From assembly GCA_043228905.1 (NCBI GenBank), contig JBHGNT010000020.1:2356001-2420000 (forward strand): a DNA stretch of 64,000 nucleotides, read 5' to 3'. Position 1 is the stretch's first letter. Every line of letters begins with the position of its first letter. Shown one piece after another: positions 19,827 to 64,000 of this stretch. A model generated the notes under the pieces. It had not been told where the DNA came from. It made no database searches and worked only from the letters and a program-made list of their open reading frames with translations. Source of the stretch: Azolla caroliniana. Lineage: Eukaryota; Plantae; Polypodiophyta. The position numbers and the translations under genes were made by a program.

Positions 19827-19888
19827 TATGGCAAGACTCGAACCCATGACCTTAGGTTATATGGGTTGAGCTCTTGACCATTATATCA
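19827..19888 (-). promoter_or_regulatory. tRNA-like Pol III A/B-box cassette in the 3' LTR of family B
   Basis: Minus strand TGATATAATGG ... GGTTCGAGTC. Confidence 0.6.
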
Positions 19889-25658: not shown

Positions 25659-26162
25659 TCATCTATGGCACGAAGAATTTAAGATCTCCAAGATAGTTTC
25701 AAATGTGACAGGATCACATGAAACTTGAAGAGTGCCATGTTGAGAATAGCCAAATTCAAGGGCTGTTTCATGGAGGAGGTGAGCAAGGAGGGGATGATAT
25801 AGGTGGTCAATTTTCACTAGATAATAATGTGAATTTGAGTTAGAGATTCGAACAGGAAGGTAACCTTTAGGAGCACATTGAGAATATAGCATAGGATCAT
25901 ATGCATGATCACATGATGTTGTTGAACTAGAATTAGTCCAAGATCCAAATGGAGTTAAATGAGAAGTATAAGATCCACATAAGGATGAGCTAGATTGATA
26001 AGATTGACACTTTGGGGTAGTAATATTAGCAGTACTACATATGAATGGTGTGTATAAGTCATCTTGCGAGGTTATTAATGGGAATATTGGATGTCTAGAG
26101 GGGTATGATTTAGGGGCTTTTATGATCCATTTCATAAGATTTATGTACCAGGGTACGCCCAT
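25659..26162 (-). CDS. SAUR: SAUR-family auxin-responsive protein, 167 aa, intronless
   Basis: C-terminal APKGYLPV...LVKIDHLYHPLLAHLLHETALEFGYSQHGTLQVSCDPVTF fits the Auxin_inducible consensus; TATA-like TATATAA about 85 bp upstream. Confidence 0.88.
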   Translation of the reverse strand: MGVPWYINLMKWIIKAPKSYPSRHPIFPLITSQDDLYTPFICSTANITTPKCQSYQSSSSLCGSYTSHLTPFGSWTNSSSTTSCDHAYDPMLYSQCAPKGYLPVRISNSNSHYYLVKIDHLYHPLLAHLLHETALEFGYSQHGTLQVSCDPVTFETILEILNSSCHR

Positions 26163-29956: not shown

Positions 29957-30374
29957 TGTCGTGAAGATACGACAAAGATATGTGAACTTGAGGCAGGACC
30001 CCGAGGCCTCTGACCAGAGGATACCAGATTCGTGCGTTTGTGTTTTAAGAATTAACGGAAATGAGAAAGTTTGATAAATTTCATTAGCAAAGAAAAAGAA
30101 AAATTACAATCTATCCCAAGATTGAGATTACAGAAAATTAGGGTTTATTCGAGAGATGGCTTCAATCTCTAAGGAAAATTAGGGTTTATGCGAGAGATGG
30201 CTTCGATCCCTAAGGAAAATTAGGGTTTATGCGAGAGATGGCTTCGATCCCTAAGGAAAATTAGGGTTTATGCGAGAGATGGCTTCGATCCCCAAGAAAA
30301 ATTATGGTTTATGCAAGAGATGACTTCAATTCCTCAAGGAAAATTTGGGTTTATGCGAGAGATGGCTTCGATCC
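29957..30374 (-). repeat. Fragment of a family D-like LTR containing about six 41-bp tandem repeats
   Basis: Terminus TGTCGTGAAGAT as at 60633; unit GAAAATTAGGGTTTATGCGAGAGATGGCTTCGATCCCTAAG at 30133-30374. Confidence 0.75.
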
Positions 30375-30692
30375 TGTTGAGAATCAAACTCAACTTCCCA
30401 TAGGAATAGTGTTCACACTAGTCGGTGGACAACTTACTAAGACATTTTTGTAATTAGTAGAAAGGGCATTTGCCCTAGACTAGTTGGTATTTAAACCAAG
30501 ATTTTGTAACTTAGTTACTATTGGATGTAATATACAATTTCTTGTTTAGAGCTCTCACTCTCACTCTCTCTCACTCTCTCTTGTACACATACACACACAC
30601 AATTCTTCCGCTACACATAATCACTCTTGATTCTTTATATGGTATCAGAACGCGTGATAGCTTGATCCAAGCCCATCGCCTTTACGTGTGTT
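30375..30692 (+). mobile_element. Copia 5' LTR (30375-30639), iMet PBS and short leader, truncated
   Basis: TGTTGAGAATCAA...TTGATTCTTTATA then TGGTATCAGA; leader similar to 28897-28932. Confidence 0.75.
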
Positions 30693-41200: not shown

Positions 41201-44200
41201 GCTTGGTGTTCAGCATCTCGACGTGCCACACTTGAGGGGGAGAATGGGCAGAGACACCGGAACGGGCAAAGGCAAAGAGACTGCAAATTGCGTCGGTGAG
41301 GGAAGAACAAAAGGCAGTAGAGTCAAGAAGGACAGAGCCGACCGAAGGAAGAAGGCCAAGACCCGGACATGGTCCGATGTGGTAATGGGCTTGGAACCAG
41401 AAGACGAATCGGGAGCAACCGATTCGGACAAGTGCTGGAACAAATCGGAGACAGTCGATTCGGTTCAAAAGATAGATTCGGAAGAACTGGATCAATTCAA
41501 GGCCAAGCAGACAAGGATGCAATGGAAGTCGATGCCATCGCGGAGGAACCGATGGATCGGCAAGCGCCGGAGTCATAGCAACAAAGGAGCTGAGAGGGGC
41601 CTATTGAGTAGACGTGCCGACCAAGAAGGTCGAGGTGCGCAGAACCAGAAGGGCCGTGGCAAACGGGACCGGACCGGACGAGGAGCGCGAGCAAGGCGAA
41701 GCGACGCCAGGAGAAGTCGGTTGGAAGAACTGACTGCCATAGAGACTAACACTAAGATCCAACCTCAAGTTGAGCTTGAGGGGGAGTGTTGAGCGGCAAG
41801 CTCAACTGGAGCCAGATCGACTGAATAAGCCTGAGCCGGCAAGAGAGACAGATCGGTAAGCTGTGAGCAACCGAGCCGGCAAGAAACAAAGCCGGTGAGC
41901 TGGGGAGCTAGTTAGCCGGATCCAATCAGTAACCGGAAGCCTAGTATTAGTGTAGACTACTAGGCAATTATAGTCTCGTAGTAAGTGTCAGATGCTCGTG
42001 TGAGCATTGAAGTACGCAGTACTTCTGTCAGTCCCACGAGCATAGTTGTAGGTATAGAGTGTTTTTATCGTTTTTGAATATAGCCTTGAAGTTCTGCTCT
42101 CTCTGTCTCTCCCGTGTACTCTGTGTATTCCCTACCTTCTCTATTTTCTAACGCTTCTAACGCTTCTGCAAGTAATCGTTTACAGAACGACTATGGAAAC
42201 GACAGAGGAGAAGAGCTCGGTTCCAGTCCGGCAGCACTTCGTCCTCCACAAAACGCGATATCCCTTACAATACCTCTCCCTCTCTTTTATAGACCAAGGA
42301 GGGAGGCCGTTACCACCCGTTACATCATGTTTATTCCCTGTCCGATATGCCTCGATTTTCTTCCTAATGAATTTATGCTACCTAGCATTTCACCTCAGCC
42401 GACTTGTACCTATCTACGTACTATACAACAAAACTTGTACCCTCGTGTAAGGGCCAGTTTACGCATGTTATACCCGGTTTCCGCCTAGGGACGGTTTTCT
42501 CCACGACACCGGAGCCGTAAACAACAAAACTAGAATCTCTGAACAAAACGACCGGTGCGGACCACCAAGAGGAGGAGAGAGTTCCGACACCACCACCCAA
42601 GTCACCGAAGGAACAGGAGGAGCGAGTTTTGACACCGCCCCGGCAGCACAAGAAGATGATGACACAATGCCTTACCAATATCCAAAGTATCGAGATGACC
42701 CGGACGTGGAAGCCCACATATATGCGTTTCTCCAAACATGGTAGGCAAACCATGTCTCCCAACGACTGACCGAAGTAGAGGCCGAACGATCAAAAATAGC
42801 AGAATTCGGCATGACTTTGGAGGGACCAACGACACGATGCCACTCTAAGCACCTCCCCGACAGTATCGCCATGTTTGAAGAGTTAAAGACAAGATTTCTA
42901 CGATTCTTCCATAGACAGGTGGATCAAAGAGAAATTTTCGGGCAATTCTATATGACACGACAGGACCCGTCAAAAACCATTCAGTAGTTTGTTATCCGGT
43001 TCCAGAGGATGCATAGTCAACTCACCAGAGCACTGCCGGAAGAAGAAGCGAAAGCGGTATATTTGGCAACGCTCCGGGAACCCCTCCGAACTGTGTGTGC
43101 AGTCATAGATTTTCGGACCAGCACAATAAACTAGGTCATTGACCGGATCATGAACATGGACAAAAATAGTTTGTGGTTGATGATGGGAGCACTCCAAAGA
43201 ACACTCCCTACCGAAGAGGACCTACGGTTTCACCAGGCAATACAATGCACAACGTGCCTTAATCCCAGGCACTCAACAATAGAGTGCACAATGAGATCGT
43301 AGTGCATGCTATGTCATTCCCGGTCACACACAATGGACCACTATGAATACAACTTGCTAAATCGGAAAGTTGCACCAGTCCGACACATCGAAACTCGGAA
43401 CGATCGAGAAGACGAAGAAGAACGATTTCAGTGAGATGATCGCTACAGACCAATACAAGACATCTGATACAACGATAGACGAGATGATTATGACCGGGAC
43501 CGGAATGATCGAAGCCGGGACTATAACGACGATCGTTATGATCAAGATTACTTCCTCGGCTACAATCGGAGCAGAGAGGATCAACGGGGAGACTATGATG
43601 ATCGGCGCCGGCAAGGACATTGGAACAACCAATGTTATAATAAAAAATGGAATGCTCAAAAAGAGGAGCGTTGAGAACCAGCAAAGGATTACCAACGGGA
43701 GCCGAATAGAAGCATAACTAGCGCTCAATCGGAACAAGGAAGAATAGAGGAGCCCAATCGGGCAGTATCCGGTTTTCAGCCGGGTAACGCGCCAAAAGCA
43801 GATTCTAGCAATACACGGAAGGTGTATTGCTACTATTGCCGGCAGGACGGGCACTACAACAATCAGTGTCCAGTGAAGACTAACGAAAAATGGCTGGCAG
43901 TCAACATGGTGGTCATGGAGGTGGCTGACATCCAACAAGTCACCACCAGGTCAAAAGGGAAGATTGCCGAATGGGAGGCTCAGGAAGCTATCCGAAAACA
44001 AGCCACAGAATGGATCGAAAAAGTGAACGAACGGAATGTCACCAAACTACAGGAGCAAAGGAAATTATCGGAGGAACCCACAGAGACAATGTAGCAGGAG
44101 AACCGCACGTGGCAGGCACTACAAGAATGCTAGATCATGCTACCACTAGGTTGGTTGCTGCAATTAGTGCCCCGATTCACCGATGGTTTAAAATCAGCAT

Positions 44201-44806: not shown

Positions 44807-45157
44807 TGTCAGGAGCAGTACTAAGATAGAGAAGTACTGCCAGTATTAGTACTAAAAGATGAGGATTAGTACTAAGGGAGGTGTAGAACTCTCAAGGGAA
44901 GGAAAGAGTGAGTGAGAGAGAGAGATCGAGAGAGAGAGAGAATGAGGATAACAAAAGATATATTATGTTAAGGGAATATAAAATAGTAGCTAGGAGGCTT
45001 AAGATTAGCGTTGAACCGATTTGGTTCGAAATAACTCCTTATGCCTCCTCTTATAGTGTTCTCAGGAGTACTCCTGAAGTTTTTAGAATGTTCCAGAGAA
45101 ATCTGGAATATACATCAATTTTCTATATGAAAATAATATTTTTCGTATTACAATACA

Positions 45158-45215
45158 TAGCCTAATGGTAAGAGCTCGACCCATGCAACATAAGGTCATG
45201 GGTTCGAGTCTTGCC
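45158..45215 (+). promoter_or_regulatory. tRNA-like A/B-box cassette in LTR B (best-preserved A box)
   Basis: TAGCCTAATGG (45158) ... GGTTCGAGTC (45201). Confidence 0.7.
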
Positions 45216-45740
45216 ATATCATGACACTATCCTCATTTTAAAATGACGAGTGTCACGAGTTGTTTTGGATTGAGGACTCGGTTTGTCTGGATATTGACTA
45301 TGGAAGTACGCTCGCTGGGACTATATTCTAGCCAATCAACTAAATAGTAGAGCTTGTACTCAGGTCCATCTTCAAGTTCAATCGGGGGTGAAGGTGGTTT
45401 AACACGATTTGGGATGGTGCTGTCCTGATAGGGTTCTAGGAGAGAACTATGGAATATTAGATGTATCCGTAGCTGTGGAGGTAGATCTAAACGAAAAGCG
45501 ACATCATTAATCTTTCCGATAATACCAAAAGGACCTAATCGCTAATACTCCAACATCTCGCATGGGCTAGTAGTCTTAGTGTGTCGTCGTAGTAGCCACA
45601 CCTGATCTTCAATGTCAAAACTGGATGGAAGCCGATGATGATCCACGTAAATCTTGTGTGTTTGTTGAGCTTGATGTAGATGAGTAGATAAATCTGCTTG
45701 TATCTTACATAGCCGCTCCAAACGATCATCTACACAAGGA

Positions 45741-48700
45741 TGTTGGCATAAAAGGCCGACTCCTTCCAAATTGTATTCGTCCGAGTGTAAACTCGTTAAT
45801 AAGTTAGGGCTTAGTATATAAGCAAATACCTAACATTGTAATGAGTGATGACGAGCAGAGTATCGAATCTCTAAACAAGAACGAAGTAGTAAGAAGCTTT
45901 CCATTAAAGCTCCATCTGTGTAAGTCTCCACGTCTATTCTATTTTCTGTATGTGTTGTTTGCTATTTAGTACGGACTACAGATCCATACACGTTTCTGCA
46001 CATAGCGCTCGTACTCACAATTGGTATCAGAGCGAATCTCTACTGTTCGGCGGCAATAGACAATAGAAGAAGCTGTCACAAATAGAATATGGCATCAACA
46101 TCCGGAATTGGAGTTGAAATCAGAAAATTCGATGGCAAAAACTTTGCCCTGTGGAAGGAGATGATGCAGGATGTGCTAATCATTCGAAGTCAGGTCGAAG
46201 CCATTTGGCACAGCGAAAAACCTGCATCAATGACAGTCGCGGAGTGGAGATCAACAGACGAAATCACACGCTCCACCCTCCGAATGCATCTGGCCAAAAA
46301 CGTCTATTTCATCATGGCGAAAGAGACGACATCGTTCTCATTGTGGGAGAAGCTACATGCCATTTATGAGAAGAAGTCCTCATCTTCGAGACTAATCTTG
46401 ATCAAACAATTGTTCAAGATGAAGATGAAAGAGACTGATCCCGCAACCTCCCACATCAACACCTTCAGTCGGGTGTTGTCAGAGGTCTCGTCACAAGGGA
46501 TCAACTTCAAAGAAGAAGTGAAAGCCCTTGCCCTCCTATCGAGCTTGCCGACGAGTTGGGAGGTATTTTGTGTGACTTACGCCAATAGCCGACCGGTCCT
46601 AAATCTGGACGAAACAACCGGCCAAGTCCTCACAGAGGCTCCCGGTACTTCATCACATTTGTAGATGACTGTACACGGAAAGTTTGGGCATACTCCATCA
46701 AGTCCAAAGATGAAGCGCTCGAGTTCTTCACTCGATGGATATCTGAAGTGGAGAACCGGTCGAGATAAAGAGTGAAGACACTCCGATCTGACAATGGAGA
46801 TGAGTACACCTCCAAAGCCTTCAAACAATACCTGTCCAACAAAGGGATCCGGCACCAAAAGACCAGTCCCTACACACCAATGCAGAAAGGGGTGGCTGAA
46901 CGAATCAACCAAACGATCCAGGAAAGGGTGACAGCAATGCTCCAACAAGATGGACTGAAGCTGGAATTTTGGGCCGAGGCATTGCAGATGGTAGTGTACC
47001 TGATAAATCTGGCGCCGTCAAGAGCAATCAGGCTCGAAGTGCCACATGCACTATGGTCAGGCAAACAACCGACCTACAATAGGCTCCGTATATTCGGATG
47101 TGAAGCCTATGCGTTCATCCCTAGGGACAAAAGGACGAAGTTGGCACCCCATGCAACAAAGTGCATATTTCTCGGTTATGGAACCGATGGGGACTTCGGC
47201 TACCGGCTATGGGACCCTGAGAACCGGAAATTGATCCGGAGCAGCGACGTAGTCTTTAATGAAGACTCTATCTTCTCTCAGCAGAACCAACAGAAACCAG
47301 TTCATAAGAAGGTATCCTTCGAAGATGACAGCACTGTCGTGGAAGGACCGACCAACCAGGCCGAATCGGAGACTCGACAAACAGTCGAACTCCAACAAGC
47401 TGCCAACTTCCCTGCCGACACCGAATCGGCAACAAGTCCTATTGTCGAACTCAAAGAAAAAGTCTTCAAAGACACATTCGAATCAACAAGGATCGATATA
47501 GGCAAAGTTACCAAGAGACAAGTTAGAAAAGAGTTGACGACAACCATAAGGGAGGACAACCAGACACCGCCAAAATCCCAAATCGGGGGCGGGACACCTC
47601 ACAGGACTCCTGACACAACTGGTTCAAGAAATACTGATCGTCAATCGGAACCGATCGAAGGATCCAAACCAGATATTACGGCACCCAGGAGATCTGGACG
47701 AGCACGAAGGCCAACAAAGTTTTATCAACGAGGCCTTGACTATTTCAACTACATGGACGCAGGCAAACCAAGCACGTATGACGAAGCTATGGCCGCACTG
47801 GATGCCGAAACATGGCTGCAGGCCATGAAATCTGAAATGGACTCGATTCATCAGAATCAGACATGGGAGGTGGTTGAACTACTAGCAGGAAGAAAGTCGC
47901 TACCATGCAAATGGGTGTTCCGATACAAGTATGTATATGACTTAGAGAAACCCAAGTACAAAGCTCGGCTTGTTGCGAAAGGATTCAAACAGGAATACGG
48001 GGTCGACTACGATGAGATATTATCATTAGTGGTCAAGACGACCACCCTCCGACTCCTACTAAGAGTCATGGCGACAGAAGATCTAGAGCTCGAGCAGATG
48101 GACGTAAAGATGGCATTCCTACACGGAGATCTGGAAGAAGACATATACATGTCTCAACCGGCAGGCTTCACAACGACGGTGGAGGACTGTCACCTCGTAT
48201 ATTGACTAAAGAAAAGTCTATATGGCCTAAAACAAGCACCGAGAATGTGGTACCAGAAGTTTGTCTCATACATATGGCAGCTTGGATACAATAGATCAAA
48301 CTCCGACCCATGCATGTATGCTCGGCAACTGGCCGACGAGTCAAGGATCTACCTGATCCTATACGTCAACGACATGTTGATTACAGGGAGCAATCAACTA
48401 GAGATCGGCAAGCTGAAGCAGAGCCTTCACGCAAAGTTCGCAATGAAGGAACTCGGACAAGACTGACACATACTGGGCAAGAGGATAGAGCGAAATCGGA
48501 CGACCAAAACTCTTCGACTCTCCCATTCTGAATACATCTGCAAGGTGTTGAAGCGCTTCAACATGGAGAATGTGAAGCCAACACCAACATCGCTTTCGAC
48601 ATCGATCAAACTATCAGATAGAGACTCTCCTGCAACGGACAAGGAGAGAGAGCTTGATGGAAAGATACCCTTCACATCGGCAGTAGGACGTATCATGTAC

Positions 48701-49809
48701 GCAATGGTGGCGACCAGACCTGACCTAGCCTATGCCGTAGGAGTGGTTAGCCGGTACATGTCAAACCTAGGAAAGAAGCATTGGGAGTCCGTCAAGCACA
48801 TCTTCAGGTATCTAAAAGGAACCATGGATGCACAACTGACTTTCGGACTGACAACCTCAACCAAAGTCGAAGGCTACATCGATTCCGACTATGCCGAAAA
48901 TGCAGATAATCGAAAATCGACATCAGGCTACATCTTCACTTATGGTGGCGGTGCGATATCATGGAGGTCAAAACTTCAAGAGTGTACGACTCTATCTACC
49001 ACAAAAGCCGAGTACATAGCAGCATCGAAAGCAGCGAAGGAAGCGATCTGACTGCACCGACTGACTGCAGACTTCGGAATTGCAAACCGAATAGACCGAC
49101 CAATGCCGACTATCTATTGTGACTCACAGAGCGCAATGCACCTCATCAACAATCTTGTCTACCATGCGAAGACAAAGCACATTGAGGTGCGGTATCATCA
49201 TATCCGAGAGCTTGTGACCAAGAAGAAACTCGAAGTTTGGAAGATCGACGCCGAGGTGAACATCATCGATTGCCTGACGAAGCCACTCCCAGATCAACGC
49301 TTCGGAACACTAAGGACGAAGATGGCGCTATGACAAGCAACCGAGCACAAGAAAGCTGAACGGGGAGCAGAAGATAAGAGCTGACTGACACTCATACTAT
49401 ACCTCTGCCGACTCGGCTACTTGCCGACAAACTTGTAACATAAGATCTAGTTAAATTTGTAATCTAGGTTGACGGGGGAGATAACCCCAAGCACTTGTAC
49501 ATGCAAGAAAGAGTAGTCCTTTTATGGGGGAGTTTGTTGGAATAAAAGGTCGACTCCTTCCAAATTGTATCCGTTAAGTGTGGAATCGTTAATAAGTTAG
49601 GGCTTAGTATATAAGCGAATACCTAACATTGTAATGAGTGATGACGAGTAGAGTATCGAATCTCTGAAAAAGAACGTAGTAAGAATATTTCCATTAAAGC
49701 TCCATCTGTGTAAGTCTCCACATCTATTCTATTTTCTGTATCTGTTGTTTGCTGTTCAGTACGAACTACAAATCCATACACGTTTCCGCACATACCGCTC
49801 GTACTCACA
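45741..49809 (+). mobile_element. Ty1/Copia (Tork-like) with internal deletion of gag C-terminus and PR
   Basis: LTRs 45741-46019 and 49535-49809; PBS TGGTATCAGAGC 46022; TSD AAGGA/ATGGA (related intact host copy has ACGGA); IN-RT ORF 46772-48205, RNase H to 49333. Confidence 0.92.
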
Positions 49810-51618
49810 ATGGATTTGTAAGTAGTTCTGGAGTTTCAAATGCACACCATCGGGGGTGACAGCCCATGTAAGCATAAAATGGTGTCACCTTTGTCGATGA
49901 GTGGATAGAGTTATTATATGCAAAATCGGTGAAGTGGAGAATAACTTAAAAAGCACCGAAGATACTGCTCCAACGTTTGATTTGTTCGTTCTACTTGAGG
50001 TTACAAGTGACCTTAAGCATTTTAAAGTGGTGTTTCCAAAACTACGAGACGAACTGGGGTCTACTATCGCTGATGATACTATCGGGAAGGCCATGATGTC
50101 GACATACTTCACGCAGGACAATTTTGGTGGTTTCTTCACTTGAGATTTCCTTACTACATGGCAGGAAATGGGCCATCTTCGTATATCGATCTACTACTGT
50201 TAAGATCGCATTGAATCCCTTAGAGACCCGAAGATTTGTGATGAAATCTAGGGCAATGGATTGCTTGGACTTGGTAATGGTTCTAATAAACCAAATGGAT
50301 GATGCCTTGGCATTTTTGCTCTGCAACATGTATCACACGTCCAAACAAAATCTTCGACAAATTGTCGCATATGGGGTCACCAAAATGATCGTTGTACTAA
50401 ATCGAGTGTTTTAGTACTATCAAAATGCCTAGTTGTATATGTGTCATGACAGTTTTGGACTAATTGAAGGTGACAAGTACCATTAGGAACATACAAGCGT
50501 CTCTTAAAGAATAGTAATCCATCATGACATTCGAATTGTCGATAGTCCGTACCTGGTTGTTGCGACTGTGAACAAGATGCTCGAGAAAGATCAATTTGTA
50601 CTAGAATGGCGAGCGAAAGCATCTGTCTTCAAGTCCTCACGTGTGGTATCGATAACGTGGGAATCCAAGGGCATACCGAAGACCTGCATTGCTTGCAATC
50701 GTGCCAGTCCTAGGATTACTTGCTTTTGGTTATCGAAAGCCGGTTCGCTGGGACGTGGTGCGAGATTAGAGCGCCGTGATAATGCATCTGCCTTCCCTTG
50801 TTGCTTCCCCGGACGATATGTAATTTTGAAGTCGAAATGAGTGAGGAATTGGCCCCACCGAGCTTGACGTCGATTTAACACACGAGCATTCTGAAAGTAG
50901 GCAAGGTTTTTGTGATCACTGAATATGATGACTTAATGAGAAGACCCCTCTAGAAAATGCCTCCATTGCATAAAAGAGTCCACTATTGCTAATATCTCCT
51001 TATCATGAATTTCATAGTTGATTTCCGCGGCGTCAAACTTGCGTGAATGGAAAGCCACAGGATGTAGCTTTTCATCATCGTCTTGTTGAGACAAAATGCT
51101 ACCCAACGCAAAATCCGACTTGTTGAATGGTCTTTCTAAATCAACATGAGCTAAAATAGGAGCTGATGTAAATGCCTTCTTAAGAATCTCAAAAGCGAAT
51201 GATTGTCCCTTCCTAGTAAGTTGTGTGAGAGGCAAAACAAGCTTTGAGTAATCCTGTATGAACTTGTGGTAAAAATTGGCAAAGCCTAAAAAGCATTGCA
51301 CATCTCGCAGCAAGCGCGGAGTCTGCCACTCTACCACCATTTTGACCTTAGTTGGATCCATGGAGATGCCTTCCGAGGAAATGACATAGCCCAAAAATTC
51401 TACCTGGTTGCACCCGAAACTACATTTTTCTAGCTTTGCATAAAGACCATGTTCTTGAAGTCGTTTTAGTACTAACAGTACATGAGAATCATGCTCTTCT
51501 GGGTCTTCGAATAAACCAGTAGATCATCCAAATAGATGATCAAAAAATCCTCCAAGAGATCTCAAAATATATCATTTCCCATGTGTTGGAAGACTACTGG
51601 CGCATTAGTGAGGCCGAA

Positions 51619-51883
51619 TGTTACTCCATACGAGATGTACAGAGAGTCAAGTGTGATGAGCGAGGGTCGAATGTTATCATGATGTTGTGTATGTGTAGGG
51701 GGCATAAATGTAGTTGTGAGTCTATACGTATGTGAACACATGCACACGTGTGTGCATGTGGATGGATACGAGGAGGTGTGAGTGAGTGTCCAGTATGAAT
51801 GCTCGAGGGGGCTTACACCCCTATGTATCTACCCCCTCTTGTACTATTTAACCCCTTATGGGGAATGAATGAAACAGGAATAA

Positions 51884-51939
<56 letters not shown>

Positions 51940-52152
51940 TCATCTCTCTTCCTCTCTCTCCCCTTAACGTTGAACCCCCTTGGGAGGGGGCTGGAGCCAT
52001 TCTAGGCACCACCCCCCACCCCGCAATCCTTTTCTATATGATCTCTCTCACCATCATACTCTCCATCACCATGTATATCTTCATTACCAATCATCATAGT
52101 TATCATTCATCATCATCATCATCCTTAACCCTAACCCTAAAAACCCATAACA
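51619..52152 (+). repeat. LTR family E with (TC)n tract, followed by a degenerate PBS-like TGATGACCAC
   Basis: TGTTA..TAACA; CTATTTAA and AATGAA motifs; homologous to 13083-14019. Confidence 0.8.
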
Positions 52153-54117
52153 CCTTTTGATGACCACTAAGGCGACCCCCCTTTGTAAATGGAGTCGAAG
52201 AATGATACGTGTCGATGCAAGCCATAGAGACTAAGTGCAAGAAATCACAAGTTTCTTATATCTTTCTTTCAATCTAAATATTGATTAATAAAATATATTA
52301 TACTTGTGGGATTCACAAGTTTATAATAATCTATTCATAATTAAAATCGTCTCAAATTCTTCCTCTTCCTAGTCCAAAACCCCAGCGGTTCCCACCCGAC
52401 TCACGCAACGATCCGACGCCGAAAGGCACGACACAAGTGGTGAACCCGACGTGAATACTGGTGGCAAGGAGATGGAGAATCAACAAGAAGCGATGAATAT
52501 GATGATGATGATGATTAAGCGGATGCAAGAAGAGCAACGCACAATGTCGGAGATGAAATCGACAGTAACACGGCTTGTGCAAAGAAACGGGAATTCGACA
52601 TAAAGGATGTGTCACGCTATCTATGCGAATACAAGGCCGAGATGATGCGATGTGGGATACCGGAAGGATTGCAAGTGACATCCTTCAATCGAGTAGTCAC
52701 AGATGAGTTACAAGAGAGAATCCACAGAATAGGGCAACAAAACCCGACATGGGAGTCCTTTGAAGAAGCTTTACGAGAGGCATATGATTTCAAGAGATCG
52801 AAGGGACAAGATCGGCGAGTATTCGACAAATGGGTGGCATCGGAGAAGACCTATCGGAGTGCAACACAAGTATTCCTAGAATTCGAGCATCGTTTTGCTA
52901 GACTCTCGAAGCGGGAACAAAGATTGGTGGGGGAGGATAAAGTCCTAATGTTTGTAAAATCGATCGATCGAAAAGAAAGGATGGACATCGGGATCGAGAT
53001 CGAAGATGATGACGGTGCGAACGGTCTTACCGAGGATTGGGCCAAAGTCGAAAGGGTATGCCGGAGACATGATGAGAGGAAGATGAGAATCTTGTCAACG
53101 ACATGGCCGATGAAGGATGGTCGATTGAAGACAAACGATGGAGCCGATATGAAGGCCGAAATACAACATGATGGTGCGACGGAAGAGGGTGTAAAACAAG
53201 CTACCGTCTTTTCTTGCGAAAGAACGACGGCGAAGGATAAGGCCGATAACCCAAGTGTAGAAGAAGATTTCGGAATACAAGTGTCTGAAACATCGGGTGA
53301 AAAAGGGGTAAGCATAATTGATGTTTGCATAATTGATGCAGTGAAACAAAGCAAGGAGGACTTGATTGAGGAGGTCGCCACGAAAGATGACATCGAATCA
53401 AAGGTGGCTATGGACGAATCAATGGCGAATGGCCATATCGAGATTTCCCCACCACTGATTCTAGAGACTCCGGCGATTGCGATCGAAAGGCAACGTGAGA
53501 CCGAAGAGACGGAAGGTGGTGGAGAGAAAACAAAGCTCGAAGCCAATTCATATGACAGAGAGATAGCCAAGAAGGTGGATATGCGTGAAACGACGGAGAA
53601 CGATAATACCGAGGATTCCTGCCCACTAATCCTAGAGACTTCGGCGGTTGTGTCCGAGAAGCAACGTTGTCGTCAAGATCCGTCACTACGCGCGGATCGT
53701 GAGGCGGAACCGCCGGGGTTCTGGACCGGAAGGATTCAAAGTCGGTACAAGCTTTGGCGAGAAAGTTCTTAAGATAGATTGGGAAAGAGAGAAGTTGAGA
53801 TTAAACGATTGAGAGAGATTGATTGAACTTTTATCTTTGGATTTAAGAAACAAGTTACACGATCAATTTGATAACGAATTTCTTCTTCTTAATTTCATAA
53901 CCTAAAAAAACGTGTTTTTTCTCCTCCCCCCTCCTTTTATAGATGCTCTCATGCATATGATGCATGTGAGGGTACAAGACATGCATAAAAAGCATGTTTG
54001 CCATTTGGTGCTTATGTATTACATGTGGTGCATGATAACCATGTCACTCATTTTAGCTCTCATGTATGAGAATTTACATGTAAAAGTACAATGATAGAAA
54101 TATAAATTCAACTAAAT

Positions 54118-54184
54118 GGCATGGCTTAAAGGTAAGCCAATTGACTCCTAACTCGGAGGTGCAAGGTTTGAATCCTTACTTGCC
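54118..54184 (+). promoter_or_regulatory. tRNA-like A/B-box cassette in the 3' LTR of family D
   Basis: TGGCTTAAAGG (54122) ... GGTTTGAATCC (54165). Confidence 0.65.
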
Positions 54185-54887
54185 CTCCTTGTATATGTAT
54201 ATATGTATATATATTTATATATTTATTTATCTAGTCACCGAACGCCGGTTCGTCGGATGTCGTCGATTATCGGTGCCTCGCCGGTTGCCGTCGGATACCG
54301 GTGCCGCCGCCGGATGCCGTCGTCTCAACGACGCTGGATGCCATCACCTCGCCGTCGCCGGATTGCCGTCAGATGCCAGTGTCTCACTGGCGCCAGATGC
54401 CGCCGGATCACCGGCTCCATCACCGATCCAGTTTTGGTTGGCCAAAACCCTTTACGAGTAGCTAGCCCACCTCCACTCTTAGTTCAAGTTACCTTGACCT
54501 CTCTATGCTCCACACATAGACACAAAGATAATATCTTTTGCTCTACCTTATATATGATGAAAGCCGTATTTGTCGTGCCTATGTGGGATATCTCACAATT
54601 TTCTCTTTTCCTTTCACAAACTTTATACCCTCATATCTTGACATTTAGTTGTCCATTTCTCAAGTAATAAAGTGCATTCGAAACCTCCCCTATTTTGTAC
54701 TTAGATATTAAATTTATTTAAAATGTTATCTTCACAATTATTGTATTATGTGATTCATACTCGATTTCGTACGTTTTATGGGATTTTCACACTATTGCCG
54801 AAAATCTTCACGACATCCACCCCCACCAAACCGCACGTCCTCCGGTACGTGCCAAGAAGAGAGAAAGTGAGATTTCGGCTACGGTGA

Positions 54888-57800
54888 TCAATTAGATTCC
54901 TCCATGTCTTCATTTACATCCGCCCTATTATGTTCATCGTCGAGGTGATCGAGGTCAGGATCCTTGTCTTGTCTTTTCTTGAAAATCTTTACTCTTTTTC
55001 CCCCAATGGGTACGGCCAACCTTGATCCGTCTAGTTCTGCAAGGTGGTATGTGGCATTATCGTTGGCACTTGTCACCACATACAACCCTAACCATCTTCT
55101 TGCGAACTTCCTTGTTGTACTGTGTTGATTGTCAAGGGTGCTGTCATAAACCAAAACCCAATCCCCTTCTTCAATCTTCTTGGGACGAAGTCGATGTGTG
55201 TTGTCGAACCGAACTTTGTTCTTTACTCGGGCTGCCTCCATCTTCTTTCGCGCTTTTTCTAAATCTTCAGGTCTTCTTTCAAGTTGCCTTATCCGCACCG
55301 CTAATAACTCTTCTCGGCTTATCTTGTTCTCCCATGGTATCGCTACCCATGAGGCGATCGTCCTTTCGATGGGCATAATCGGCTTTTGTCCATACATAAG
55401 CTCCGTCGGCATATACCCTGTTACCGAGCTATGTGTCGTTCTATCGGCCCACAAGGCATAGGGTAATAGTCGTGGCCAATTCCCGACTCGACCGTTGCAT
55501 GCCCGTACGATGGCTTTAACGATAGGTCCATGCCCTCGCTCGATCTTCCCATTCGCTTCCGGATTGTAGGCAGTCGTGAGGGAGAGCTTCACGCCTAGTC
55601 TTTCGAAGAGCTCTGTCACTTCGTGCGCATCCAACTCCCCTTGGTCGGCCATTATCTTCCCTACACATCCATATCGGCAAACAACCTCTTCAAGCAGAAA
55701 TTTGCAAACGGCTGAAGTCGTCTTATTTGTCAAGGCTCGTCCTTCCACTTGATTTGTCAAGTCTTCCCTTGCCAGCGCTAAGTACTTCATTTGTCCCACT
55801 CCCATTGGCATCGAGACCAGATCCACCATCCATTTGAAGTGTATGGTGAGTGGGTATGTCGGCTGTAACTCATCACGATGACGTATATTTGAATATATTT
55901 GGCAAGTTTCGCATGTGGACACGAAATGGAGTACATCTTTGTACATGCTTGGCCACCAGTACTTCTCCTTCAACTTTTCGAACATCGCCCATGTTCCTCT
56001 ATGACCTACCCAAGCACTCTCGTGGAATTCGGTCATCAGCGTCTCTTGCTCTTCTTTCTTTACCACCACTCGACGTGGTATTCCTGTCCTTCTTTTTGGA
56101 TGTCGCCAAAGGAATCCTCCCTTCAAGAAGTATCAGTAAGCTTACTTTCGGATTCGTAGGGCCTCCTCCTTTGTCAACGAAGCATATGTCGTCAATGTTC
56201 TTAGGAATCTACCGATGAGTAACCACTCTCCTTCGTACTCGTTCTCGTTGAAGGCGTGGAGGGTTTGCGTGTCCTGGTCTTCTGCCGATAATCGAGCCAT
56301 CTTGAAGAAGTCGAGGGCGACATCTTCATCTTCCAAAACCATGTTACTTCCATTTGAAAATCTTGCCCTCAACAGCATGTCAGCCATGGTGTTCTTCTTC
56401 CCTGCAATGTGACGGATCTCTAGGTTTAAAGACTTGATGTAGGCGATCCACCTTAGCATAGCAAGATCTGGGGTTGCACATCCCGAGACCATTCCGAGAA
56501 TTGGGAGACAATCTGTCTCTATTATCACTTATGACCCGATCAAGTAATCTTTGTCCGTCTTCACTACCGACACAATACCCCAAAGTTCCCGCTTGACTTG
56601 GGCATATCTTTGTTTCCGTTCGCTGAGAACCTTTGCTCTGAACCGGACGACATATCGCGCATTATCTTCACCTTCTTGATTGATGACCCACCCGATTCCG
56701 GTTGGGCTCGTATCTACGGTCACGTAAATTCGTTTTCCTTCGGCATAGTCGACCTTCCTTAGTGTCGGAGCTTCAACAAGCAGTTTCTTTAATCTTCGCA
56801 TCGCATTTGTGTGCTCATCTCGCCATTCGAACTTCATTCTTTTCTTTAGTAGTCCATATAACGGTTCGGCGACATGAGCGTAGTGAGGAATCCATATATG
56901 ATAAAACGCGCACGCTCCAAGTAACCTTCGAACCTCCGTTTGGTTTTCGCATTCTTCTTTCATGTCTTGGATTGCATTCACTTTGGATGGCGAGGGCTTC
57001 CGGCCATATGCTCCACACAAGTGACCTACCACCAAGATCTCTGGTTGCCCAAATGCGGATTTTTCTCCCGAAAATGTCAAATTCGCATCTTCGAGCCTTT
57101 GAAGCACCTTCTCGCAATCTTTCATATGATCCGCAACGAACTTTCTACAACCTTCCTTATCTTTCGATTCATCTTTCTCCTCATCCGAACATCCTTTTAT
57201 TGGAATATCATCCAAGAATGGCATCGTGATGTCCAGGATGCAATCCTTCAAGACTTTATTCATGGCGTTCACCATATGAGCCACCGAGCTCGTTGCGCCT
57301 TGGGGTAAGGTACACATCTGCACAAGCCCGATCGGAGTCCTCATGGTTGTAATGTCTCGACTGTCGATCACCAATTGGAATTGGTCATATCCGGAGTAGA
57401 GATCGCCAATGGAGTAGATGGACCGGCCCGCAAACGCTTCGGCAAATTCATCCACGCTCAGACCGATTCTGGCATTTCGAATTGTCACCTTGTTGACGGG
57501 TTGAAGATCTTGGATGAATCACAATGATCCATTCTTCTTCGGCACCGTGAACTACCTATTGGAATAAGGAGCATTCGACGGTTCTAGAATTCCCATACTC
57601 ACCTTCTCCTTTAAGAGCTCGATCAGCTTCGGAAGGTGTGCTCTCGGAACGGGTATCGGTTTCAAATTCCAAGGCACATGAGGCACCGTGAAGATCACCA
57701 TCGGCTCTATAACCTTTGGGTCGGCGCATCCGATTTCTTGTGGGAAGAATGTGAAAGCCTTCCCATGTCTCTCAAGCATATCGCGAAACATTCGCTCCTC

Positions 57801-58379
57801 TTCAGGGAGAAGGAAATCCTCCTCTCCAACCCGTAGTTTCCCCTTCGTCTCTTTGGTGAAGACATGGCCTATCTTCTTCGGATCTCTTAAGCTTGGATCG
57901 TTAGCGACTTCCTTCATCTTTTGCCAACTATCTTCCGGTAGCGGAGCCACAACTGGCTTGATCTTTTTATCCATCGTTTTATATTTCGTGTTGATGTCAG
58001 CTTCCTTCATCGAGATGCCACGACGGTATTCATCGATGATAGCGTACATGTTGGAGTTAATTGAAATCACGCGTTGGTTGTGAAGATAGCTCAAGTCCAC
58101 GACGTCCTCGATTTCGCCGATGGTGTCGTTAAATGAGGCTTCTTCCATAATATGAGTCACGAACTCTCCTTCTTCTATTATGTTTTCTTCTTTCAGCATC
58201 TTCTTGAATTCTTGTATCCGGTGCTTGTGCTTCTTGTCGGGTAGTACTAGTTTACATGCGCCACTAGGTGTGACACATGTTGCTTCTCCTCGCAATCCAC
58301 GCACTCTTCTTTGTTGTGGGGTCTTGTGATTGCTCGGACTATTTGTGCCCCATGCTTCAATAGTCCGCTCTAAAAATCC
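54888..58379 (-). pseudogene. RT-RNase H-integrase ORF of family D (-1 frame, disrupted)
   Basis: GDLYSGYDQFQL, PFLDDIPIKG, TVDTSPTGIG, HESAWVGH...CETC, WMVDLV, ADQGELD, NGKIERGH. Confidence 0.9.
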
Positions 58380-60571
58380 GAGGATTCGCCTCCGAGACTA
58401 TCTCGATTCCTTTCATGATTGGCTCGCACCGTTAGGAATTGGACCGATCTTTATTTGTCAAGACTCTTTATTCGTGCGAAGGCTGCTCCATTATTGAACA
58501 CTTTGGTCTCCATCCGAGATGATGTGATATAAGGTTGCCCTAGGATGACAGGATGCGTCGCCGATTCTTGTACGAAGAAGTGTTGTTCCATCTCCACATC
58601 CCCGATCGTGACTTTGATATTGGGACAAGCTCCGTACAAGTCCTCCGTAGACTTTGTTGCCGCGCGAATCTTCCATCTATAGTTTGTATTGATTGGCCAT
58701 CTTCCTTTTTTGTAGAAGTCAGTTGACATGAGGTTGATCTCCGAGCCGTGGTCGATCAAGGCTACCACGGTCTCTTTCTTCTCCCCGATCTTCACCGGCG
58801 TCTCCGTTGTCGCTCGTGCCCAATGAGGTCAAGTATAGTGGTTGTCCACCATATCTTCATCGACTTCGTCTCTTGCCATCGTTAAGGCATTCGTTTTTGC
58901 TTTTTGCGGCTTCTCTTCTTCCTCGTCTGATTGTTGTCTCTTTCTCTTTACAAGATCCACGATCGTGTCATGGAACTCCTTCTTCGTAATGCCAAGCAAT
59001 TCCCTCAAGGACAAAGTTACGTGGCTATCAAGAACTCGTTCTTCGAGAATCTTCTTTAGGTCCATCGTCTGCTCTATGTCCGACCTTAGCTTATAGGTAG
59101 GTATAGTCCTTGTCCTCCGAGCGGGGTCTTCGACACCAACCTTCACGGGCCGAACCGTTTCTTCAACTCGTATGCTCGGATCCCCTTTTCGGCTTAATTC
59201 TCGTTCCTCCGTTTGTAAAGGTCGACTCGTCTCCGCATCGTCTTCTTTTTCGCGTTCCTTGTTTCATGTCTTTTTGATGGCCCTTACTCTTCTATTCTCT
59301 TTCTCTTTTCTTCGACGAACACCTCGTGGTTGTCGCACATCACCTCTGCGAGTATGGTGTTGTCGTCCACCGGATCCGACCACCCAATTATGCTTTGCAC
59401 GTTTCGGTCCGCAAGCTCTACCTCGTTCGATGTGACTTTTCCCTTCTTCTCATATTCGAGAACGGAAGTCCAAAACTTTGCTCCCGCTCTAGCAGCTTCA
59501 ATCTTGTCTTTCCCGACTCTTATTCCGGCCGACGCAACATAGTGCATCGCATCCACATGAGTCGCATCGGCATCCTCCATAGATTTCTTCATTCCTCCTC
59601 TTCCGAAATTCACCCGTAGGGGTCTTCTAGTCTCGCTTGAGCAGATCATGTTGTCCTCTATGTATACGATATTTTGTCGAATCGCCTCTCGAAGGCTCGC
59701 ACAATCCCTTCTCATGTGGTCCATGTTATCGCACCACATGCATCTAAAGGGTTCTTTTCCTTTAGGGCCCCAACGATTCATGTTGGCTAGCGTGACCTTC
59801 TCAAACTTCTTCGCTAACTCTTCAATGATGTCGTCATCAATCTTCTTTTCTTCCACGTTACTTTGTCTTGGCGGCTCAGCTACTTTCGGCGGTCTTGCTT
59901 TCTCCGTGGTAGTTGATCCCGTCAAGTCGGTGTCATCAACCCATTGGCGACGCTTGTCGAGCCTATTGCATGCCCGCTTCACCGCGATCCAGTCCGCTAC
60001 GAGCCCATTTGCTTGAGTATCATCTTCGAGAGAGTCCCCAACTCCCATCTATCCTTTATGTCCACGGCCTTCAAGAAGTACAAAGTCTTGTCCTCTTCAA
60101 GCAACACTTGGTCCGTATTGGGGAGACGACTAAACATCTGGTCGAATTCGTCGTACACCCTCGAGATGCTCATCTTCTTATTCTTCTTCTCTATCCACTT
60201 CATCAGGGCATGTCGAGTCATCCTCGTTGAGTCTTCAGTCACAAACTCCGCTAGTATAGTTTCTCGAACTTGGACTATGTTGTCTTACCTTCTTGAAGCT
60301 CGATGACGCGTCTTTGAATGTTGTTGGCGACAACTCTCTTGAAGCTTGCGATTTGACGTGCCTCGGACACGTCCCTCTAATTCATCTCCCTTCTATATGC
60401 ATCAAGGAACTTCGTAATGTTCCTTCCATCGAATTGGCTCTCAAGCTCTACAACACGATCGACAGCCTTCTCCACACTCACGTCGTTGGCCCGAGATCTC
60501 ATCGTTTGCTCGACGATTAGCATCATCCTTTCAAGCTCTCCCGCTTGGTTGCTTGAGGACGCCATCTCCAA
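58370..60571 (-). pseudogene. gag-protease ORF of family D (disrupted)
   Basis: FDGRNITKFL; RCMWCDNMDHMRRDC; LIDHGSEINLM; frame ends ...GGESSDF*. Confidence 0.85.
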
Positions 60572-61094
60572 GTATTAATCTCAACTTGATCCTTCCTACC
60601 GCCTCTTTCACGTCGGGTTCACCACTTAATTATGTCGTGAAGATCCGTCACTACGCGCGGATCGTGAGGCGGAACCGCCAGGGTTCTGGACCGGAAGGAT
60701 TCAAAGTCGGTACAAGCTTTGGCACAAGCTTTGGCGAGAAAGTTCTTAAGATAGATTAGGAAAGAGAGAAGTTGAGATTAAACGATTGAGAGAGATTGAT
60801 TGAACTTTTATCATTGGATTTAAGAAACAAGTTACACGATCAATTTGATAACGAATTTCTTCTTCTTAATTTCATAACCTAAAAAAACGTGTTTTTTCTC
60901 CTCCCCCCTCCTTTTATAGATGCTCTCATGCATATGATGCATGTGAGGGTACAAGACATGCATAAAATGCATGTTTGCCATTTGGCGCTTATGTATTACA
61001 TGTGGTGCATGATAACCATGTCACTCATTTTAGCTCTCATGTATGAGAATTTACATGTAAAAGTATAATGATAGAAATATAAATTCAACTAAAT

Positions 61095-61161
61095 GGCATG
61101 GCTTAATGGTAAGCCAATTGACTCCTAACTCAGAGGTGCAAGGTTCGAATCCTTATTTGCC
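61095..61161 (+). promoter_or_regulatory. tRNA-like A/B-box cassette in the 5' LTR of family D
   Basis: TGGCTTAATGG (61099), D-stem GGCTT/AAGCC, GGTTCGAATCC (61142), T-stem AAGG/CCTT. Confidence 0.75.
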
Positions 61162-62751
61162 ATCCTTGTATATGTATATATGTATATATATTTATATATT
61201 TATTTATCTAGTCACCAGACGCCGGTTCGTCGGATGCCATCGGTTACCGGTGCCTCGCCGGTTGCCGTCGGATACCGGTGCCGCCGCCTCGCCGTCGGAT
61301 ATCGGTGTCTCACTGGCACCGAATCACCGGCTCCATCGCCGGTCCGGTTTTGGTTGGCCAAAACCCTTTATGAGTAGCTAGCCCACCTCTACTCTTAGTT
61401 CAAGTTACCTTGACCTCTCTATGCTCCACACATAGACACAAAGATAATATCTTTTGCTCTACCTTATATATGATAAAAGCCGTATTTGTCGTGCCTATGT
61501 GGGATATCTCACAATTTTCTCTTTTCCTTTCACAAACTTTATACCCTCATATCTTGACATTTAGTTGTTTGTTTCTCGTGTAATAAAGTGCATTCGAAAC
61601 CTCCCCTATTTTGTACTTAGATATTAAATTTATTTAAAATGTTATCTTCACAATTATTGTATTATGTGATTCATACTCGATTTCGTACGTTTTATGGGAT
61701 TTTCACACTATTGTCGAAAATCTTCACGACAACGTGAGACCGGAGAGACGGGAGGTGGCGGCAAGAAAGGTAAAGTCGGAAGCCGGTTCGGATGGAAGAT
61801 GATCCGGACGGAATTCCGATCCGAAAGAAAGTTGACCTGAAAAGGAGTCGACTCGATCAAAACCAATCGACCGAGTCCGATTCGGCCGAACGCGAATACG
61901 GATGGAAGTCGACCTAGTCGAAAGATGATCGGACGAGACCGATCCGGAAAGAAGCTAATCCGACTTAGTTGGACGTTGAACCGGTCGAGCCAATGAAAAC
62001 GAGGAAAAGAAAGCCAACCGAAACCGAAACCGAGAGATCGAAACCGACCCGTAAGGGGGCGAAATCGGTAAAAACTGATCAACCGAGTCCGATTCGGCCG
62101 AATACGAATCCGATCAGAAGCCGATCGGACGAGACCGATCCAGAAAAAATTCAAGGTTGATGAAGAGGCAAGGAAAAGACACTACCACGAATGACAAGGG
62201 CCAAGCGGATTTGAAGGATATTATTAACGATAAGATCTCAACAAAGAAGAATGGCTCTAACGGGAAGAATGTAAACACTAATGCGAGATTCTATGAAGAG
62301 AGAGAACAAAGAATATGGTGGATCGGATGGCGACAATGGTTCGGGTGATAAGAATGGATATGTTCAAAATGGAGAGACAACGCCGACATAGCAAGAGAAA
62401 CATAGGGTACTACAAGTAAAGAAGAATTATGAGGGCCGGTAACCGGAGACCGGACAGAGCCAACAACCGAACAAAACTGGAAACCGAGCGGAGTCGGCAA
62501 CCAAAAACCGGAGACCAAACGGGGCCGGCAACCAAAAATGGCAGGCGACGAAACCAACCATGCGGAGAACGAACGGACGAGATTAACAATCACCGACAAC
62601 TTCGGCACATACCGGAGGATGTGTGGGTTCGGAGGGGGCGAGTGTCATAGTGTATTTCGTACACTACGTGGAAATAATATAAAATAACCGATTGAATAAA
62701 TATGAAGAAAAAAAAGAAGAAGAAAATATCAAAATAAGCATTACATGCATA

Positions 62752-62810
62752 GTGCAAGATTCGAACCTTGCACCTCCATGTTAATAATGTAATGTCTTAC
62801 CATTACACTA
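62752..62810 (-). promoter_or_regulatory. tRNA-like A/B-box cassette in the 3' LTR of family C
   Basis: Minus strand TAGTGTAATGG ... GTGCAAGGTTCGAATCTTGCAC hairpin; T-runs downstream (+ strand A-runs 62708-62734). Confidence 0.7.
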
Positions 62811-63384
62811 ACATTTCATTAGTGTTTAAAAAGTAGATGTTCCACATAGAAAAGTTATTTCACCTAGGATAAACTTTAGTTAAAAGAAAACGCATGCTAA
62901 AAGAAAAAGTTACGCGTGCACATCTAGCTTGCATGAACGCTATAGTTGATAAAAAAACGCACAAGTTAGAAAAAGCATGATCACTTTAGATCAAGCATAT
63001 AGTCTATCTATAGGAAAAGCATGGAGTCTATAGTTAGAGAAAAAAAAGCATGGATTCCTAAGACTCCCTCATCACTACATAAGGATGGGGAGCACAATGT
63101 AATAGGTGTGTGAAATATTTGGGAAATTGGATATATTTCCTAAAACACCAATAATAAAATAGAATCGTGGGATTCACGAAGTTTTATATAATCCATCTCT
63201 TTCAATCTAAATACATATTCTTACATAAATATTAATCAATAAAATACATTATACTTGTGGGATTCACAAGTTCCTAATAATCTACTCATAATTATAATCG
63301 TCACAAATTCTTCCTCCTCCTAGTCCAAAACCCCGGTGGTTCCCACCCGACTCACACAACGATCCGGAGCCGAAAGGCACGACA

Positions 63385-64000
63385 CCGTATTCCGGACCAA
63401 TGTTGTGGAACCCGTTCAAGCAACCGGAGGACGGAGTAGGAACCGGAAGCGGTATTCGAATAGCCGGCAACCAAGAGGAACCTACCACAGAGCCTGTGTT
63501 GTCGGATACAATGGAAAAGGAATAACATGTGTCCTTAAAGAAGGAAAAATAAAAAAAGAAGCCATCCTGCAGGGGTGAGGAGTAAATATGTGGCGAACGC
63601 ATGAGGAGAAGAAGAAGAAAAGAAAAAGAAAGAGTGGTAGTAAAAAATGAATGAACACCACGAAATGGCGTGACGTTAGGCATTTAAAGCGCACCACACG
63701 ACATACAACTTCTATAATAATACATGACATGCATGCGTAGGAATCAAGAAAAGGCGGCAAAGATGGGAACACAAAACATCCGCATTACAGAGTCTCTCTC
63801 ATTCCGCGAACATAGAGCCCTTAGCACATAGAAGCGGATACAGGTGATCAGGCGAATGCAAGAAGCTACCGCAGGCACCCCGAAGCTTACCACCACCACC
63901 AAAGTAAATGACACACTAGAGCCCATGGCGCTCTCCAAGACTGCCAAGAAATGGTTTACACAACATGGATTGGAGGGTTTTCTCCGAATAGCAGAAGCAC
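63385..64000 (+). other. Probable internal retrotransposon sequence with the start of an ORF (MALSKTAKKWFTQHGLEGFLRIAEA...) running off the window
   Basis: ATG at 63925 open to the window end; no diagnostic motif seen. Confidence 0.3.

Follow-up and report, generated by a model that had tools for sequence, protein, structure and literature searches.

An antisense tRNA-derived promoter relic kept in the LTRs of two distant Gypsy lineages of Azolla, a possible TFIIIC site beside the element promoter

Why should retrotransposons that encode their own proteins and bear their own TATA box keep a tRNA-like Pol III promoter in their LTRs, facing backwards? The question is raised by a stretch of 64,000 nucleotides of Azolla caroliniana DNA (hereafter the window), in which the original prediction placed seven A-box/B-box cassettes in the LTRs of three Gypsy families, B, C and D. 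The A- and B-box consensus was used for the scans. The available text of the Helenus study gives the same box cores (PMC10886601). The two-box pattern had seven matches in the window and none in any of 60 block-wise dinucleotide shuffles, and the matches lay exactly where they had been predicted, with the predicted A-to-B spacing (43 nt in five cassettes, 44 nt in two). As had been claimed, each of the seven lay within an LTR, ran antisense to its element and sat upstream of a TATA-like box; the distance was 103-270 nt (from A-box T8: B1 +114, B2 +103 with a TATAAG variant, C1 +270, C2 +265 and D +180). The partial eighth copy noted at 21108 was also recovered, in an LTR with a weak likeness to D (local score 35 against a null95 of 29). 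The cassettes of the window are as follows.

61092-61162, plus strand: cassette in the 5' LTR of element D, antisense to D (A box 61099-61109, variable-loop AGGT 61134-61137, B box 61142-61152)
54115-54185, plus strand: the same cassette in the 3' LTR of D, with C56 changed
14613-14684, minus strand: cassette in the 5' LTR of element B1, confined to the LTR's first 77 nt (A box starting at 14677, B box at 14633)
19824-19895, minus strand: B1 cassette of the 3' LTR, directed into the region of the PPT and chromodomain
45151-45221, plus strand: 3'-LTR cassette of B2, a second copy of the B family (LTR 44807-45226, minus strand)
31254-31324, plus strand: cassette in the 3' LTR of C1 (LTR about 30690-31412, minus strand), with T-runs downstream
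62747-62817, minus strand: cassette in the 3' LTR of C2, the C element that hosts D (LTR 62643-63385, plus strand)
21101-21165, plus strand: decayed eighth cassette in an old D-like LTR, with the A box and AGGT kept and the B box lost; a TATA-like box lies 144 nt away

The elements that carry them have these landmarks.

14608-20253, plus strand: element B1, with LTRs at 14608-15043 and 19819-20253 (96.6% identical), TSD GTAGA, a chromodomain and a broken gag-pol
14791-14799, plus strand: TATA box of the B1 5' LTR
15046-15057, plus strand: B1 self-priming site, 12 nt complementary to 14825-14836 in the LTR (R region); no tRNA PBS
53668-61731, minus strand: element D, 8064 bp, with LTRs at 60633-61731 and 53668-54815 (96.8% identical), 4-bp TSD ACGT and a tRNA-type PBS at 60608-60624
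60912-60919, minus strand: TATA-like box in the 5' LTR of D, at a distance of 180 nt from A-box T8
52438-52456, plus strand: 19-nt PBS of tRNA type in the C element, following a truncated 5' LTR (52270-52434); this PBS gave the 3' end of the implied primer tRNA

D, whose pol is broken and lacks a chromodomain, is nested in the gag of a C-family element carrying the same PBS, which may match tRNA-Trp, the primer given for Phygy; scans of viral contigs and prokaryote genomes yielded no tRNA matching this PBS. The division of the carriers into a chromovirus (B) and non-chromoviral elements (C and D) stood, as a chromodomain was found in B and in neither of the others. It is C-terminal (PF00385, E 6e-15), and B1 is a 5.6-kb element with 436-bp LTRs and a 5-bp TSD. 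Judged by its chromodomain, self-priming and lack of a tRNA PBS, B is likely a Tcn1-type chromovirus, Tcn1 being described as a self-priming chromovirus lineage (Neumann 2019, PMC6317226). C and D match the Phygy type by their structural marks (in D, TSD ACGT, 8064 bp and no chromodomain), Phygy being given in the accessible descriptions as a non-chromovirus of 7.7-10 kb with a 4-bp NCGN TSD and a tRNA PBS (PMC6317226; Novikova 2010, PMC2864245). The integrases of B and D are 24% identical, and the named homologs of the D reverse transcriptase come from the liverworts Riccia and Calypogeia and the fern Adiantum. Judged by lineage, the joint occurrence of Tcn1-type and Phygy-type elements would suggest a moss. 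Protein P0092, 61% identical to the D reverse transcriptase, is named from a Kitasatospora assembly (a 1.5-kb contig) and is probably plant contamination.

Other repeats of the window, namely element A and three Copia LTR families, carry no cassette. Element A is a Gypsy element on the minus strand (3699-10300) with no detected chromodomain, an LTR region that is 99.4% identical, a single 1456-aa frame and three 83-bp tandem repeats at 9596-9844. Between 28800 and 63385 lies a nested stack, in which D sits in the gag of the C element, one Copia (45741-49811) in B2 and another (36526-42184) in a further LTR, with C1 just behind a Copia PBS. The window also holds a 41-bp tandem array (30092-30351), a 152-bp duplication (33147-33450) and a 400-bp repeat in two inverted copies of 75% identity (13083-13473 and 51750-52152), one end of which carries a CT microsatellite and telomere-like TAACCC units. 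A host SAUR-type gene (25659-26177, minus strand; PF02519) was the sole non-transposon Pfam match among the 35 frames scanned.

Could the cassettes simply be tRNA genes or stray SINEs? A functional tRNA gene was ruled out: ARAGORN called none in the window and none in 28 loci, the Rfam tRNA model RF00005 scored C2 at 21.2 bits and D at 18.1 bits, both below the gathering threshold of 29, and the cloverleaf was not conserved. Rfam gave no tRNA match for B2 or for the 14 clade loci described below, and no 5S match; the LTR core is not 5S-derived. Nor did the cassettes bear SINE marks: there was no tail and no TSD, and no free copy occurred in the 64 kb of the window and 271 kb of loci. Contigs that run on into unlike sequence at the cassette made up 0-2%. 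A sporadic SINE, which the original prediction had named as a way to be wrong, is also at odds with the presence of the cassette in 14 of 14 readable clade LTRs. What was found of a type-2 Pol III promoter was the pair of boxes at tRNA spacing and an AT-rich stretch over the 50 nt upstream; CAA at -10 to -3 and a conserved oligo-T terminator were not. Together these results support the view that the cassette is probably a tRNA-derived type-2 Pol III promoter relic, a fixed and selectively kept part of the LTR rather than a sporadic SINE insertion.

The clade in question came from a survey in which loci were chosen by protein only, blind to the cassette: 67 C-terminal integrase/chromodomain proteins were aligned and metagenome contigs were then searched, and the best 80 of 550 confirmed loci, all of chromoviruses, formed the sample. 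In the surveyed elements the 3' LTR begins directly behind the chromodomain. Eighteen of the loci, which have neighbouring record numbers and may represent few species, formed one clade with B1 and B2 (support 100/89; tree of 83 rows and 136 columns). All 14 clade loci with a readable LTR start, among these best 80 of 550, carried the cassette, antisense and within the first 105 nt. The others were L008, L013 and L014, which stop within 26 nt of where the LTR starts, and L027, which is rearranged and has no LTR behind the match, though the B-side half of a cassette occurs elsewhere in that locus. Outside the clade, none of 62 loci in the same sample (59 with at least 120 nt downstream) reached the two-box profile threshold anywhere. 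A textbook-box scan of these loci gave isolated above-null scores (L018, L054, L057, L059 and L062) at other spacings or positions, none of which passed the two-box profile. Two profile matches, L006:309 (inside pol) and L010:137, were dropped as they fell below the shuffle maximum of 21.3. At 2870-2955 of locus L010 lies one more LTR start of Tcn1-like kind, whose decayed cassette is marginal (score 22.1, spacing 47); another solo LTR interrupts this LTR about 140 nt upstream of the A box.

Orientation was antisense throughout, and spacing was 43-44 nt in 17 of 18 cassettes. Clade members shared 55-91% protein identity with B, and their LTRs aligned mostly at the self-priming region or the cassette. 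Open pol frames of 868-1153 aa that run through the chromodomain were present in six clade loci, which shows the carriers to be coding elements. Between families, the self-priming site and its R partner differ in sequence yet stay complementary (12 nt in B1, L006 and L012, 9 nt in L024), and this covariation would support self-priming in plant Tcn1 elements. Contigs from coded organisms A, B, C and E covered the B cassette, which speaks to presence only, and those from A, B, E and F covered the D cassette. The earlier remark that the LTRs are otherwise little alike was borne out between C2 and D, whose best LTR alignment is the cassette itself (score 46 against a null95 of 30). All carriers share one layout, in which the LTR edge is followed by the B box, the A box, roughly 50 AT-rich nt, an enhancer particular to the family, TATA and R; the cassette is the outermost part of U3 in Tcn1 and lies 150-630 nt inside it in C and D.

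Which parts of the cassette have been kept was measured in tRNA register over 11 family representatives (nine Tcn1, C2 and D). Mean identity in the A box was 0.65 and in the B box 0.78, values inflated by anchoring of the register on the boxes, and it was 0.81 at positions 44-48; it was near composition level in the anticodon arm (0.35), the acceptor strands (0.30-0.38) and the flanks (0.29-0.37). The comparison of Tcn1 with Phygy gave the same pattern (A box 0.69, positions 44-48 0.76 and B box 0.83, versus 0.31). Box positions were 0.74 identical versus 0.43 elsewhere, a difference matched by 1 of 100000 column permutations. Three bases that were not anchored, A44, G46 and T47, were invariant in all 11 and fall within the tauB footprint. 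This footprint spans 35 bp, with base contacts at G53, T55, C56, G57, C61 and C62 as renumbered here from the available text of PMC11811891. Among 18 cassettes, G53 was kept in 18, T55 in 17, C56 in 15, G57 in 14 and C61 in 16; C56-G57 was intact in 11, and position 62 was mostly T. The 50 nt upstream of the A box were AT-richer than the rest of the LTR in nine of nine cases (0.76-0.84 versus 0.55-0.68), and this stretch matches the region bound by TFIIIB upstream of plant tRNA genes, as far as the accessible part of PMC13578239 describes it.

A different picture emerged from close pairs of copies. In five such pairs, changes in boxes versus the rest of U3 numbered 5/27 vs 13/116, 3/27 vs 41/349, 4/27 vs 33/178, 3/27 vs 14/128 and 2/27 vs 13/128; box change was not slower, in single copies that also carry post-insertion decay. 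Contigs of the D family (four runs) had variants at three A-box positions, all degenerate, and at 7 of 24 spacer positions, and none in 61134-61161, a B side that adjoins a skipped repeat. Decay of the boxes at the U3 rate had been set out beforehand as a refutation of the prediction, and the outcome was mixed, with the boxes kept between families (0.74 versus 0.43) and decaying at the same rate in the close pairs. Selection on the boxes therefore appears visible only between families.

An alternative sees the cassette as a passenger: a SINE head or tRNA copy of old date would have become fixed in ancestral LTRs and have no present role, its box conservation coming from anchoring, recent U3 exchange or overlap with Pol II signals. 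The unslowed box change in close pairs and the decayed B boxes of several copies are what it would lead one to expect, and a SINE insertion is the origin proposed for Helenus (PMC10886601, available text). It is harder to reconcile with a spacer, acceptor strands and flanks near background while the boxes and the un-anchored AGGT are kept, with loss in none of the 14 readable clade LTRs, and with the lack of a tail or TSD and the run-on of 0-2%. We consider it quite unlikely.

Pol III promoters inside an LTR might equally serve to make RNA. If the cassette were an active Pol III gene, its antisense RNA would cover U3, the PPT and the end of pol (from the 3' LTR) or flanking DNA (from the 5' LTR), and might tune silencing or copy number. 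In its favour, both boxes, their spacing and the upstream AT-richness are kept, and Pol III miRNA units do exist in the U3 of foamy viruses (PMC3993851, available text). A T4 run was found 11-51 nt past G52 in 11 of 19 copies, including both C copies, whose downstream oligo-T had been pointed out before and consists of T4-T10 runs 22-52 nt past G52. The remaining eight copies (D, L002, L005, L024, L030, L074 and both B1 LTRs) had no T4 within 60 nt; in D no T4 occurs before 206 nt, B varies, and the T-run of Tcn1 is mostly the complement of the PPT. CAA at -10 to -3 was present in just 1 of 11 representatives. Folding gave a similarly divided picture: the B and C2 cassettes fold strongly (z -4.5 to -6.3), but folds differ by family, with a long hairpin in B, two hairpins in C and z above -1 in six other representatives. 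The claim that D-arm and T-arm stems survive while acceptor and anticodon arms are lost was not upheld, since stem pairing was no better than in shuffles (P 0.09-0.51) and no arm paired consistently across families. D can still pair 5 bp in the D-arm, 4 in the anticodon arm, 4 in the T arm and 6 in the acceptor in a flexible register, whereas in B the D-arm is down to 1-2 bp and the sequence forms a long hairpin. The antisense-RNA role suggested in the original prediction is weakened by the non-conserved terminators, CAA and folding, and we regard an active Pol III gene as unlikely. As a separate observation, the spacer of the B cassette is an inverted copy of its B-box arm (14619-14668 and 45166-45215), which other families do not have, and the first 60 nt of the B U3 form a long hairpin directly behind the PPT.

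The antisense orientation also invites a Ty3-type explanation that had not been raised before: the 3' U3 of the element RNA would pair with a host tRNA through complementarity to its D and T arms, and this pairing might join the RNA ends or aid packaging. A tRNA-like stretch is found in the U3-R of HIV-1 as well. In Ty3, the T and D arms of the primer pair with U3 (PMC5371799, available text), and antisense is the orientation that pairing requires. The conserved blocks correspond to the D loop and the variable/T loop, the spacing is tRNA-like, and the Tcn1 cassette lies directly behind the PPT. Ty3, though, matches its own primer, which the cassette does not: of its 12 bases at positions 62-73, only 1-5 agree with the primer that the Phygy PBS implies, and the Tcn1 carriers use no tRNA primer, the clade apparently self-priming with 12-nt matches that co-vary between B1, L006 and L012. 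T-stem positions 49-51, within the would-be pairing block, vary (0.40). The case for Ty3-type tRNA pairing is weak, and we hold it to be rather improbable.

With linear boxes, tauB-footprint bases and a TFIIIB-type AT stretch kept, and RNA structure and terminators lost, we favour a reading in which the cassette acts as DNA. Binding of TFIIIC itself seems rather probable on these sequence features. That docking of TFIIIC and TFIIIB keeps the neighbouring Pol II promoter open against silent chromatin has, in our estimate, nearly an even chance. TFIIIC would bind the B box, with the AGGT directly upstream inside its footprint, and the A box, and would load TFIIIB on the AT-rich stretch between cassette and enhancer. 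This would create a boundary, poor in nucleosomes, that flanks enhancer and TATA on their outer side, and any Pol III transcript would be a by-product. The geometry of the cassette is one that a barrier role would fit. Such tDNA/TFIIIC barriers were reportedly the subject of work by Simms in 2008 and Noma in 2006. They are known with TFIIIB/C in yeast (PMC9540200, available text); in the literature searched, as far as its texts were available, tRNA/TFIIIC barriers came from yeast and animals and none from plants.

Several observations count against this TFIIIC reading. C56-G57 is intact in only 11 of 18 cassettes, box decay in close pairs equals the U3 rate, and element A and the three Copia families manage without a cassette. 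TFIIIC is moreover described as tolerating an A-B spacing of 30-67 bp (PMC11811891, available text), so TFIIIC docking leaves the tight 43-44 spacing unexplained. Between cassette and TATA, B-type LTRs contain GAAnnTTC arrays (14746-14771 in the window; L002, L005/L006 and L011; nine half-site pairs in L005), and CATG/GCCAAATGG arrays occupy the same place in L009, L012, L074 and D. The GAAnnTTC arrays are presumably heat-shock-element-like. This arrangement suggests that the enhancer modules between cassette and TATA may be swappable.

Pol III factors can also attract insertions, and Ty3 targets Pol III start sites. The cassette might accordingly be a landing signal that draws Pol III-targeting retroelements or steers the nesting of its own element. 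No insertion was found within 45 nt upstream of any cassette examined, and the nested insertions of the window strike gag, pol and a PBS, which makes a landing signal very improbable.

How did two distant lineages come to share the cassette? Matrices built from Tcn1 only gave C1, C2 and D scores of 31-35, where shuffles scored with the full matrices reached at most 21, but a true tRNA gene would probably score as high and the scores are therefore no proof of a common donor. The cassettes of Tcn1 and Phygy have one A-box variant in common, and in both a T-rich tail follows the B box, which suggests a common donor. Sharing of whole U3 between Tcn1 and Phygy was not detected, only short motifs aligning, near null. 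We postulate a single gain in the ancestor of the Tcn1 clade, followed by U3 exchange with Phygy or by capture from the same donor. The fuller proposal built on this, that the Gypsy elements own a TFIIIC boundary, a captured tRNA promoter at the outer U3 edge that was gained once in a chromovirus clade, shared with Phygy by U3 exchange and shields the LTR promoter from heterochromatin, is tentative and, by our reckoning, somewhat unlikely.

The original prediction had framed the cassette as a tRNA-derived analogue of Cassandra. A tRNA-type promoter relic in LTRs is indeed what was found, but the analogue is not new as framed, Helenus having been published, and the cassette faces outward and cannot make genomic RNA. 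Helenus, or TRIMp3, is the tRNA analogue of Cassandra, with one plant family, from Selaginella (Kojima 2024, PMC10886601, available text). Like the elements here, it has tRNA-derived sequence in each of its LTRs, with boxes A and B as the main conserved parts and no functional tRNA. Helenus elements are, however, non-coding and 311-1263 bp long, whereas the carriers here are coding Gypsy elements of 5.6-8 kb with a TATA box; and the tRNA part is sense in the three Helenus LTRs inspected, where it is proposed to drive element RNA (PMC10886601), and antisense in all copies here. With these two defining features failing, the cassette carriers are not Helenus. The same text remarks that a partial likeness to a tRNA is found in 'not a few' Repbase LTRs and analyses only TRIMs (PMC10886601), so such LTRs may have been seen before. 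Cassandra TRIMs likewise place the Pol III promoter of a small-RNA gene in plant LTRs, but theirs is 5S-derived and sense, in non-autonomous elements, with transcription shown (PMC10886601, PMC13570524, available texts). Foamy viruses, which are autonomous LTR elements, also have A/B-box Pol III units in U3, next to a Pol II promoter; there RNA hairpins and terminators are conserved and expressed, whereas here the boxes alone are conserved (PMC3993851).

Boxes that work for a neighbour are known as well. Small-RNA genes of trypanosomes have divergent upstream tRNA genes whose boxes serve the neighbouring gene. Barriers of the tDNA/TFIIIC type also use A and B boxes as DNA elements for a neighbouring locus (PMC9540200, available text), but both kinds are host loci, of yeasts, animals and trypanosomes, whereas the cassette belongs to a mobile element's own LTR. 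The available parts of the Tcn1 and Phygy descriptions mention no tRNA-like LTR sequence (PMC6317226, PMC2864245), and in the full-text literature searched, whose scope was outside most subscription papers and Repbase entries, no coding plant LTR element, whether Tcn1, Phygy or another, was described as carrying a tRNA-like cassette in antisense. The accessible supplements of PMC7466625, which may lack sequences, contained none of six box motifs, and the available text of PMC12789967 had nothing on a tRNA-like U3. The cassette is real and clade-wide and is selectively kept between families; its function we infer.

The small-RNA promoters known from LTRs belong to tiny non-coding elements, whose RNA they drive. 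A Pol III promoter kept backwards in coding elements of two distant lineages points to another role. For annotation, pseudo-tRNA and SINE calls in host genomes can be parts of LTRs. If the cassette is a TFIIIC boundary, it would explain the continued expression of chromoviruses that dwell in heterochromatin, it would mean that many TFIIIC-type sites are dispersed through the repeat islands of the host, and it would offer a portable 70-bp test object for TFIIIC barrier action in plants. It would then be a protein-free anti-silencing device of an autonomous transposon and the first Pol III-factor barrier in plants.
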